Shown here: positions 12,529 to 14,918 of the stretch, piece after piece
Numbering within the stretch: position 1 is the stretch's first letter
Layout of the letters: every line of letters starts with the position of its first letter
Virus record (IMG/VR): IMGVR_UViG_3300031555_003522
Coordinates: 32,001 to 96,000 of that record
Reading direction: 5' to 3' (one strand)
Length of the DNA: 64,000 bases
Origin: a virus
Taxonomy: Duplodnaviria; Caudoviricetes
The notes under the pieces: generated by a model
The model's database searches: none
What the model was told of the DNA's origin: nothing
The model's input: the letters and a program-made list of their open reading frames with translations, nothing else
Position numbers and translations under genes: made by a program

Positions 12529-12831
12529 ATGGGAACCACTAAAGACTTTGTCCATAATCTAAATTCAGATAATATCCCCTACATAGTAACTAATTATTTT
12601 GATGAAATAATGGTTTTATACAACCTGGTTGGCAGTAGGCAGGATATTGAAATCTGTACAGATAGTTCAAATGATACTGTAAAATTTATACTTTTGATGG
12701 ATTGTGAAGAAAGTGCAACAGAGCTATATAATAGCTTAAACAATATGGAGTTCTCTGTATACAGTGACCGTTTCATTATTGGTATGACTCTTTCCGGATC
12801 TTCCATTACTACAGTAATTACAAAGATATAA
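12529..12831 (+). CDS. Hypothetical protein
   Basis: ATG 12529 preceded by AAGGAGG; followed by terminator 12832-12865. Confidence 0.7.
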   Translation: MGTTKDFVHNLNSDNIPYIVTNYFDEIMVLYNLVGSRQDIEICTDSSNDTVKFILLMDCEESATELYNSLNNMEFSVYSDRFIIGMTLSGSSITTVITKI

Positions 12832-12888
12832 TAAAAAGGTAGGAATTTAATTCCTACCTTTTTATTATTAATTAATAAACATATATTT

Positions 12889-13190
12889 GAAGGTATTATA
12901 TTTCAATTGGAAATATCTATATCTTCAAAATAAACGCCTCATCTATAAAGGTAGGTGATTGAGGCGATAAATACGAGCAAATCCTACCAGGTTGATTATA
13001 AGTCATTATGGGGACTAGTGACATCAACCAGTTACCTGCGCAGGTACTAATAGTTCCCAAAAGTGACGTAGCAATTAGTAGTTGTAGAGGTGATTGACTG
13101 TATTCCTCGTAATCGCTACTATGGGATGTCGAAAAGTCAATAAAGAAGTAGATGGAGAGTGTACAACACTCTCCACTATTTTTTTTTTGT
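12889..13190 (+). ncRNA. Candidate ~300-nt structured RNA: 5' hairpin, three tandem pseudoknots, terminator
   Basis: Late promoter AACA-TATATT-TG (12878-12889); stems cgcctca/tgaggcg with ggtagg:cctacc; ggttgat/atcaacc and gtcatta/tagtgac with gggacta:tagttcc; gtagcaatta/taatcgctac with attgact:agtcaat; terminator tggagagtgt/cactctcca plus T-run. Confidence 0.6.
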
Positions 13191-13244
13191 TTTTCCTTTT
13201 ATTGTCCACTTAATTCACATATTAATAAAAGAGGTGATGCTTAT

Positions 13245-14918
13245 ATGCCAGATTTAATAAGGGGTGATCACCTTAGAGTGAGTCTTATAGACCCCGAAAG
13301 ACTGGTAAAAGTCAATGATCTCAAAGAGATTACCAATCCCATTTCATTCGTTCGAAATTCAGTTCCTACCTCTGATGGATTATTATCTAATGAAATATTT
13401 GGAATTACCAAATATGATCGCGCTAATACATTTGCATACATCGATCTTCATGAGGAGTTTTTAAACCCTCTAATTTATAAGATGTGGTGCAAAGTTGATT
13501 CTAATGTTAAAGCATGCGTTCATGGTATAAAATATTTCAAGATAAATGATAAGGGTGAACTTGAAGAAGATCCGGAAAATGGTGATAATGGTATTAGGTT
13601 TCTTAGAGACAATATTAAGAAAATTAAGATTAAGCGTACTGGATCTAAACAAAGAGACATGCGTGTAGACTTTATAGAGAGCTATATCGGTAAGCCTGAA
13701 ATGTTTATTAAGAAATATATAGTATGCCCAGCATTCTATAGAGACGTTAATAACGATAAAGGCAAAGTATCTTTAGGAGCAATCAATGAATTGTATAGGT
13801 CTTTGTTGATCTCTGTTAGAGCTCTTAGAGAGTCCTCCGAATATGGTTTAAATCTAACTTCTGCTACTCGTGGTCGTATACAGGAAACTCTTGTTCAAAT
13901 ATACGACTGGTTTGGATCTGGTACTACTATAAATGGCGAGAAAACTAGCAATCTTATTCCTGGCAAATTTGGTATTATTAGACAGGGTGTTATGTCCAAA
14001 ACAACAGACTATGCTACTCGTCTAGTTCTATCGGCTCCAGAACTCAAGGTTGAACGGTTAGAGGATGTAGAAGCAGATCTCGATTATTCTGTACTTCCGT
14101 TAGCATCTGCTTGTGCAAACTTCCTTCCGTTCATAGTATATCATGTGAGAAGAATGTTTGAAAATGAGTTCTCTGGAGATGCGGTTATACCCTATATAAA
14201 TAAAGATAAGAGTATAACCTATTTACATCCGAAAGATTATCAAGTAGAATTTTCTGATGAAAGAATTAAGAAAGAAATAGATAGATTTTTGACAGGTTTC
14301 TCAAATAGATTTATTCCTTTAGAAGTTCCTACAGTAGAAGGTATTACTGTACGCTATAGATTTAAAGGATATAATATGACTGCTGAAGAGTATGCAAAAT
14401 CTGATATAGGTAAGATGCCTATAATGGAACGAGACTTAACTTGGTGTGATATACTCTATCAAGCAGCAGTAGAAGCTACAAAAGATAAACATATACTGAT
14501 TACCAGGTATCCTATAGACACTTATTTTAATCAGTTTCCAACCAAGATTAAAATAGCTTCTACCACAAGAACTGAACCTATGGTTGTAGGTAGTAAATTC
14601 TATAAAAATTATCCCTATATTCGTCAAGAAGATATTGGTACTAATACTTCTAATAAATTTATTGATACTTTGAATATTAGTAATCTATATCTAGATGGAA
14701 TAGGTGGAGATTATGATGGTGACCAGGTAACCGTAAAGGGAGCCTTTACAGAAGAGACAAATGCAGAGCTTGCTGAACAGCTTAAATCTAAAGCTCACTA
14801 CTTTAATCTTGGTGGTAAGGGTGTTAGAACTTCTGATAAAGAAGCTATTCAGAGCTTATATAGTTTGACATTGTGTCTAGATGCGGATAAAGAAAAAATC
14901 TCTGCACCTGTTTTCTAA
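13245..14918 (+). CDS. DNA-directed RNA polymerase beta-prime-like subunit (N-terminal half with catalytic motif), probably virion RNAP
   Basis: GLLSNEIFG, AYIDL, GKFGIIRQGVMSKTTDYATRLVLS, LITRYP, catalytic GGDYDGDQV; GAGGTG SD before ATG 13245; late-like promoter (CACA-N6-TA 13216-13227) suggests the virion enzyme (inference). Confidence 0.9.
   Translation: MPDLIRGDHLRVSLIDPERLVKVNDLKEITNPISFVRNSVPTSDGLLSNEIFGITKYDRANTFAYIDLHEEFLNPLIYKMWCKVDSNVKACVHGIKYFKINDKGELEEDPENGDNGIRFLRDNIKKIKIKRTGSKQRDMRVDFIESYIGKPEMFIKKYIVCPAFYRDVNNDKGKVSLGAINELYRSLLISVRALRESSEYGLNLTSATRGRIQETLVQIYDWFGSGTTINGEKTSNLIPGKFGIIRQGVMSKTTDYATRLVLSAPELKVERLEDVEADLDYSVLPLASACANFLPFIVYHVRRMFENEFSGDAVIPYINKDKSITYLHPKDYQVEFSDERIKKEIDRFLTGFSNRFIPLEVPTVEGITVRYRFKGYNMTAEEYAKSDIGKMPIMERDLTWCDILYQAAVEATKDKHILITRYPIDTYFNQFPTKIKIASTTRTEPMVVGSKFYKNYPYIRQEDIGTNTSNKFIDTLNISNLYLDGIGGDYDGDQVTVKGAFTEETNAELAEQLKSKAHYFNLGGKGVRTSDKEAIQSLYSLTLCLDADKEKISAPVF

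Follow-up and report, generated by a model that had tools for sequence, protein, structure and literature searches.

A candidate late non-coding RNA with three consecutive predicted pseudoknots, encoded upstream of an RNA polymerase gene in an AR9-like jumbo phage

Genomic context and borders of the unit

The window analyzed here, a stretch of 64,000 nucleotides, is part of a 208-kb IMG/VR virus record. The phage genome has a G+C content of 34% and carries group I introns, tRNAs and multisubunit RNA-polymerase genes; because of these features, it is regarded as an AR9/phiKZ-type jumbo phage. A structured unit without protein-coding content (12878-13190) lies between a gene for a 100-aa protein of unassigned function (12529-12831) and an RNA polymerase (RNAP) beta'-like gene of 557 aa on the + strand (13245-14918, with its ATG at 13245). 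The latter matches phrog_2986, 'RNA polymerase beta subunit' (1.9e-79), and DxDGD, the catalytic motif of beta', is seen in its translation. Within the unit, no open reading frame (ORF) longer than 47 aa is present under code 11, code 4 or with TAG read as Q, and gene calling left the corresponding gaps of its relatives (400-580 nt) empty. Since none of the three codes gives a credible ORF, protein coding by the unit was rejected. Identical copies of the locus, with zero variation, were found in three other samples.

The features of the RNA and its borders given below all lie on the + strand. On the 5' side, the unit is bordered by the terminator of the 100-aa gene (12828-12868), whose perfect inverted repeat of 20 nt precedes a T run. 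This terminator is preserved, with different stem sequences, in the relatives described below (L046 and L133-L150). It is followed by a late-promoter motif, AACA-N6-TG (12878-12889). The late promoter of phage AR9 has been defined experimentally as AACA-(6N)-TA/G, its last base being the start site (PMC5312081). The motif in the window agrees with this consensus, and its last base was placed as the start site. The predicted +1, G12889, is, therefore, the first base of a hairpin spanning 12889-12926. At the other end, an intrinsic terminator is predicted (13142-13190), with a stem of 13153-13162 paired to 13166-13175 that is extended by pairing of an A-rich segment with the U run (z -6.7). A preliminary description of this DNA had drawn the unit with precisely these three borders, and all of them were found again at the same positions. 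Promoter, +1 and termination of the unit are predictions.

Elsewhere in this genome, the AACA-N6-TG motif mostly lies 20-40 nt 5' of gene starts. More copies are found 200-380 nt 5' of the next gene, at window coordinates -14148 and 153455, and the one at 153455 falls inside a candidate late non-coding RNA locus. TG-type starts may be preferred for non-coding units.

Outside the RNA, a near-consensus late motif, CACA-N6-TA, a ribosome-binding site and the ATG of the RNAP gene follow each other at 13213-13247. This motif, with one mismatch to the consensus, stands about 20 nt before the ATG, as it also does in two related loci (L003, 2950-3003, and L046, 1380-1410). The relatives conserve it, and so do more distant phages devoid of the RNA. 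Its presence suggests that the RNAP beta'-like gene is a late gene, hence probably one encoding a subunit of the virion RNAP.

Folding of the single sequence

The whole unit folds with a z-score of -6.8 on the + strand, against -4.8 on the - strand (-96.6 vs. -77 kcal/mol). Much of this signal is supplied by the 5' hairpin (z -4.7) and by the terminator: the z-score is -3.5 for the cassette without the terminator and -2.65 for the inner 216 nt. The energy difference between the strands and the invariant G-U pairs in helix P4 (see below), which fit the + strand only, assign the RNA to the + strand.

Three hairpin loops had been proposed to pair with segments further downstream, and all three pairings are present (12950-12955 with 12983-12988, 13011-13017 with 13051-13057, and 13093-13099 with 13135-13141); the second is better read as 7 bp between 13009-13015 and 13053-13059. 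As a count, such loop-to-downstream pairings of at least 6-7 bp are matched by dinucleotide shuffles in 5-21% of cases. The second pairing alone stands out, as its 7-nt loop is fully complementary to the downstream segment (p 0.003-0.03). From the window sequence alone, the three pseudoknots are marginally above chance. With the positions fixed by the relatives, the pairings in the window, named PK1, PK2 and PK3, have p-values of 0.084, 0.0014 and 0.024, respectively.

A 10-mer had also been reported to recur in the first and third of these units. This Shine-Dalgarno-like 10-mer does occur at 12953 and 13088 and nowhere else in the window, but it is absent from the relatives. As it is not kept there, it is considered incidental to the window copy.

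Relatives and distribution

Standard searches gave no homologs. No DNA similarity was identified in the INPHARED phages or in five related IMG/VR records, and neither blastn nor nhmmer found a match among 80 related IMG/VR loci around the polymerase gene. Exact 18-20-mers (searched in IMG/VR, a metagenome set and GTDB genomes) returned chance matches only, as did a search for the pattern of the two-copy 10-mer (26 matches). The relatives were reached through the neighboring gene: the variants of the upstream 100-aa protein that cluster with it at 90% identity were listed, and the contigs encoding them were fetched. A sequence without homologs in standard searches can, thus, be assigned to a family by walking via near-identical neighboring proteins.

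Thirteen loci (L133-L139, L143, L144, L147, L149 and L150) contain, in the same slot, 310-400 nt that are free of ORFs. Together with the window, they represent 12 distinct sequences, i.e., 11 further homologs (311-400 nt). By BLAST, only 13060-13300 of the window aligns to these relatives, with 77-82% identity. The full stretches are nonetheless collinear with the window: promoter 12-mer, +1, 3' core, terminator and start of the downstream gene follow in the same order. The promoter 12-mer and the predicted +1 are invariant in 12 of 12 distinct copies except for one T/A position, in flanks that vary. The 3' core contains blocks of 17 and 12 nt that are identical in all copies. The window copy is the most divergent of the 12.

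With a covariance model of the 3' domain (R1), the copy in the window was recovered at an E-value of 3e-18. None of 27 other jumbo-phage records, of which 21 are at least 90% complete, gave a credible match, and the family is, therefore, considered confined to the clade in which the polymerase subunit clusters at an identity of at least 90%. In relatives with a polymerase subunit 51-88% identical, the slot is nearly empty (55-140 nt) or holds small ORFs, and it is empty in most of about 80 more distant relatives.

Within the clade, the RNA is present or absent among near-identical phages. The closest relative according to the polymerase protein (L046, 98% identical) carries a 106-aa gene and a 69-aa helix-turn-helix (HTH) gene instead of the RNA. 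Homology between this locus and the window stops exactly at 12878 and restarts at about 13122-13132, so that only the 3' tail of the RNA is left. The RNA is accordingly read as lost at least once inside the clade.

The slot also appears to be a hot spot for other cargo. In L046 (741-1281), the two genes just mentioned fill it, the HTH gene being 'control protein'-like. In L005 (2740-2967), it contains a 75-aa ORF with a weak Tad2-like Pfam match (22 bits, below the cut-off); a 66-aa ORF is found in L004 (2725-2925) and a 59-aa ORF in L007 (2654-2833, - strand). None of these genes seems to have decayed into the RNA: a tblastx comparison found nothing inside the cassette, and a pseudogene of the slot genes of the relatives was, hence, rejected. 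In a much more distant locus (L125, 1530-1700; polymerase subunit 26% identical), a G+C-rich, ORF-poor and strongly folding stretch lies upstream of the same gene.

In seven of the RNA-bearing loci (L133-L138 and L149), an HTH gene directly precedes the ORF-free stretch. An AT-rich element with a short inverted repeat is conserved just 5' of the RNA promoter in the same loci (about 2200-2240) and in L139 (about 2080-2114). It lies directly 3' of the HTH gene where this gene exists, and it is absent from the window copy. It could serve as an operator or as an upstream element of the promoter.

Architecture of the RNA

Folding each sequence domain by domain gave the same architecture in 12 of 12 copies. 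In order, it comprises the hairpins P0 and P1, a two-tier hairpin P2a/P2b, the small hairpins P3 and P3b, a long irregular hairpin P4-P4b-P5-P6 and the terminator. Three pairings cross this arrangement: the P1 loop pairs with the linker after P1 (PK1), the P2 loop with a segment just 5' of P4 (PK2) and the P6 loop with the tail just 3' of P4 (PK3).

These helices were tested in two ways. In a permutation test, the true combination of 5' and 3' strands was compared with all re-assortments among the distinct variants. The strands were drawn from the per-sequence folds, as the variable parts of the MAFFT alignment are out of structural register (in the window, L143/L144 and L137). In the 5' two-thirds of the window copy, positional homology is one of architecture and not of sequence alignment. 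Secondly, base pairing was scored in two alignments. In the whole-length MAFFT alignment (A5), where PK1, P2a, P2b, P3 and P4-P6 are in register and were tested, 96.3% of the cells are paired and 14 pairs are changed on both sides, a result reached by 0 of 500 shuffles; slid controls, with partners moved by 1-3 columns, give 31-42%. The corresponding values for the alignment of the 3' domain (A6) are 92% of cells paired, 10 pairs changed on both sides and 0 of 500 shuffles, with 27-50% in the slid controls. The family amounts to about six independent lineages, and seven of the copies are near-identical in places.

The 5'-terminal hairpin P0 (12889-12926) has a predicted stability of -11.1 kcal/mol and is weaker on the - strand. 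That the predicted +1 is the first base of a 5' stem, already noted in the preliminary description, holds for the whole family: a hairpin starts from +1 in all 12 members, although its length and sequence vary, and 0 of 20,000 random strand assignments are as good.

P1 (12935-12966) pairs 12935-12941 with 12960-12966 and bears the 5' strand of PK1 (12950-12955) in its loop. Seven different stem sequences occur in the family, all of them complementary, and the cognate assignment is the single best (1 of 5040 permutations). The 3' strand of PK1 (12983-12988) forms 6 bp in the window. In A5 (columns 166-171/216-222), pairing of PK1 amounts to 97%, and in two pairs both sides have changed. Several of its variants stay complementary, and 3 of 720 permutations are equally good. 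In the window, the segments that hold the PK1 strands (12944-12955 and 12979-12988) are near copies, at 11 of 12 and 9 of 10 nt, of the arms of the upstream terminator (12832-12858). This likeness is limited to the window copy and is absent from the relatives; it could be due to chance or to a local conversion event.

P2 (12990-13029) is a two-tier hairpin in which P2a pairs 12990-12996 with 13023-13029 and P2b pairs 13002-13008 with 13016-13022. The same hairpin is seen in independent folds of all members, both tiers show double changes among the relatives, and the cognate assignment is found once in 720. Its whole loop (13009-13015) is the 5' strand of PK2. The 3' strand (13053-13059) forms 7 bp with it, including one G-U, a pairing reached at these predefined positions by 27 of 20,000 shuffles. 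The relatives use one different palindromic 6-7-mer, likewise joining the P2 loop to the segment just 5' of the core. Cross pairings between the two versions reach -0.6 to -2.5 kcal/mol; the cognate pairing reaches -10.1 kcal/mol in the window and -5 to -7 kcal/mol in the relatives. For PK2, covariation is limited to the comparison of the window with the remaining copies.

Between the two strands of PK2 lies P3 (13033-13046), in the window a perfect palindrome of 14 nt with a self-complementary 4-nt loop. At the same place, the relatives have a 3-bp hairpin inside an 8-nt palindrome of different sequence; L150 lacks P3. In the relatives, a further small hairpin, P3b, follows, of which the window has a vestige; its cognate strands rank as 2 of 5040. 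Because the loops of P3 are self-complementary 4-mers, the RNA might pair with itself.

The 3' domain (13060-13131) is built of P4 (13064-13069 with 13126-13131), P4b (13072-13073 with 13122-13123), P5 (13076-13081 with 13116-13121) and P6 (13087-13090 with 13105-13108). P4/P4b, with a 2x2 internal loop and a 2-nt bulge, forms an invariant core. It is identical in 12 of 12 copies, is the only part for which this holds and is flanked by PK2 and PK3. The distal helices P5 and P6 covary (cognate strands, 2 of 720). PK3 joins the P6 loop (13093-13099) to the tail (13135-13141) by seven Watson-Crick pairs. Five cognate versions of loop and tail occur in the family, in one of which both strands are swapped, and the cognate assignment is the single best (1 of 120). 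L133 and L135 (about 2450-2530) carry a natural recombinant copy of the RNA: its P5/P6 tip is of the L137 type and its 3' tail of the L136 type, for which reason PK3 cannot form in it.

The terminator stem occurs in nine variants, all complementary, and none of 20,000 random assignments is as good.

Homolog collection and a covariation check, both suggested in the preliminary description, revealed compensatory changes in every helix. Compensatory base-pair change across homologs, the criterion for a structured non-coding RNA, is, thus, seen in this family. The three consecutive pseudoknots that had been proposed are each supported by covariation across the relatives, and the decisive support for the three predicted pairings is comparative: 11 further distinct homologs keep all three with other sequences.

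Interpretation and alternative explanations

The region from 12889 to about 13188 is probably a genuine gene for a late non-coding RNA that is transcribed as a separate unit in an AR9-like jumbo phage. As shown by comparison, the predicted RNA starts with a 5' hairpin, continues with three H-type pseudoknot modules (P1/PK1; P2/PK2, spanning P3 and P3b; P4-P6/PK3) and ends at the intrinsic terminator. It would be made late in infection by the non-virion RNA polymerase of the phage, and the 5' hairpin and the knotted fold would make it compact and long-lived.

The position of the RNA raises the question of a role in cis. A terminator-ended RNA just upstream of a gene is the layout typical of bacterial leaders and riboswitches. 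The RNA might, thus, be a leader of the RNAP beta'-like gene, in which binding of a factor, perhaps the polymerase, decides between a stop at 13153-13188 and read-through. The fixed place of the RNA, always directly 5' of the same gene and in the same direction, fits such a role, as does the end of its terminator about 55-70 nt before the ribosome-binding site of this gene. A leader is, nevertheless, unlikely. No antiterminator covaries with the terminator, the strands of which show no greater complementarity to the upstream RNA of the same copy than to that of other copies (as-good random assignments, 4118 and 10,049 of 20,000; p 0.2 and 0.5), and no riboswitch or leader of Rfam matches. As none of the nine terminator variants covaries with a segment further upstream, the RNA is not a classical terminator/antiterminator switch. 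The gene is, moreover, carried by relatives without the RNA. The conserved late-type motif CACA-N6-TA stands between the terminator and the ribosome-binding site, also in phages devoid of the RNA, and the RNA is, therefore, probably not a leader.

A second alternative is a counter-defence decoy, as the preliminary description had proposed by way of example: the pseudoknots would mimic a type III antitoxin, itself a pseudoknot, or another RNA bound by a host defence protein. The accessory nature of the slot, which elsewhere holds the weakly Tad2-like ORF of L005 or a small HTH gene with or without the 106-aa gene, and the patchy occurrence of the RNA among near-identical phages speak for it. 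On the other hand, the type III form is disfavored by the three modules, which are dissimilar and not direct repeats, and by the surroundings, where no toxin-like gene and no PADLOC match beyond a generic HTH is found. This explanation is, hence, rather improbable. A non-functional remnant, in which the remains of deleted genes, former ribosome-binding sites and copies of terminator arms fold by chance, can hardly account for the data, even if the arms of the upstream terminator recur in the window at 12944-12955 and 12979-12988, the ribosome-binding 9-mer of the downstream gene recurs at 13086 and the slot is recombination-prone: these repeats are absent from the relatives, and in 12 distinct copies, the promoter, all helices and the pseudoknots have been retained via compensatory change, which is not expected in decaying DNA and argues against gene debris.

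For the separately transcribed late RNA favored here, a role in trans is proposed, in which a protein or a small ligand would be bound at the invariant core. This appears likelier than regulation by base pairing, as identity across all copies is limited to P4/P4b, the window copy has no conserved single-stranded stretch in common with the others, and no antisense target was found in the phage genome (complementarity of at most 13 nt, i.e., at chance level). The architecture, with its 5' hairpin, three consecutive pseudoknots and small, absolutely conserved core, points to a specific partner rather than to antisense regulation. A decoy for ribosomes by means of Shine-Dalgarno-like 7-mers was also considered and rejected: the 7-mer is not specific for start sites (6 of 24 occurrences in this genome), and it is unconserved in the relatives.

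The RNA would be accessory, since it has been lost from close relatives and, in other relatives, small accessory genes occupy the slot. Its presence/absence in a hot spot of accessory genes is a pattern typical of arms-race functions, and, at a guess, this pattern and the cargoes of the slot point to an accessory, possibly conflict-related function. One specific version, RNA-based counter-defence in which the P4 core acts as an aptamer soaking up a host immune signal (e.g., a cyclic nucleotide) or a defence protein, is a long shot. Such an aptamer would be an RNA analog of protein sponges, among them Tad2, a possible occupant of the slot in one relative. In this reading, the self-complementary P3 loop could also allow self-pairing of the RNA, giving dimers or larger assemblies.

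Jumbo phages with their own RNA polymerases have been studied mostly via their proteins; here, a well-supported structured RNA gene of such a phage, with a predicted late promoter of the phage's own type, is described. If its partner is found, an RNA player would be added to phage takeover or counter-defence.

Comparison with known RNAs

No Rfam family matches the window or its relatives: for the window (at gathering and E-value thresholds, up to an E-value of 10), only chance-level matches to two terminators were obtained, and for the relatives, nothing at an E-value of 0.1 or below. The literature search yielded no description of such an RNA. The preliminary view of an undescribed structured non-coding RNA is in agreement with these results and with helices that covary in 12 copies. 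As judged from the sequences, the RNA is a new, narrow-clade structured RNA family with a predicted fold unlike that of any curated RNA family.

The tmRNA gene stands alone, measures 300-400 nt, is framed by a promoter and a terminator of its own and encodes several consecutive H-type pseudoknots. The new RNA resembles it in being a stand-alone gene of similar size with consecutive H-type pseudoknots (PK2-PK4 in tmRNA). In contrast to tmRNA, whose paired 5' and 3' ends form a tRNA-like domain with a T-arm, it lacks such a domain, and its ends are not paired with each other: a local hairpin is formed at the 5' end and a terminator at the 3' end. That it is not a standard tmRNA, as had been noted from the start, agrees with ARAGORN, which reported no tRNA or tmRNA in the window or in seven relatives. 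No conserved ORF that could serve as a tag frame and no match to the tmRNA models of Rfam were found in the window or the relatives.

Type III antitoxins (ToxI, AntiQ, CptI) are pseudoknotted RNAs associated with conflicts between phages and hosts, and mimics of them can be encoded by phages. They consist of tandem direct repeats of one 30-45-nt unit beside a toxin gene, whereas the RNA described here has neither. Tandem Repeats Finder gave 0 rows for the unit and a repeat search only pairs of 9-13 nt; no gene for an endoribonuclease toxin of the ToxN, AbiQ or CptN type is adjacent (Pfam, PHROGs and PADLOC).

GOLLD and ROOL are highly structured, pseudoknotted RNAs of unknown function that are carried by phages or prophages and were found by comparative analysis. 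The new RNA is likewise phage-borne, structured, pseudoknotted and found by comparison. GOLLD and ROOL are, however, 500-800 nt long, widespread and both included in Rfam, whereas the new RNA measures 311-400 nt, is confined to one small clade and matches neither.

Other candidate late non-coding RNA loci of the same genome have no sequence similarity to the unit; they share with it the type of promoter, at the start of an ORF-free unit that ends in a terminator. With the late units of AR9, the unit has the promoter motif, the start base and the intrinsic terminator in common (PMC5312081). The late units of AR9 drive proteins or a tRNA (PMC5312081), whereas the unit in the window is an ORF-free structured RNA.
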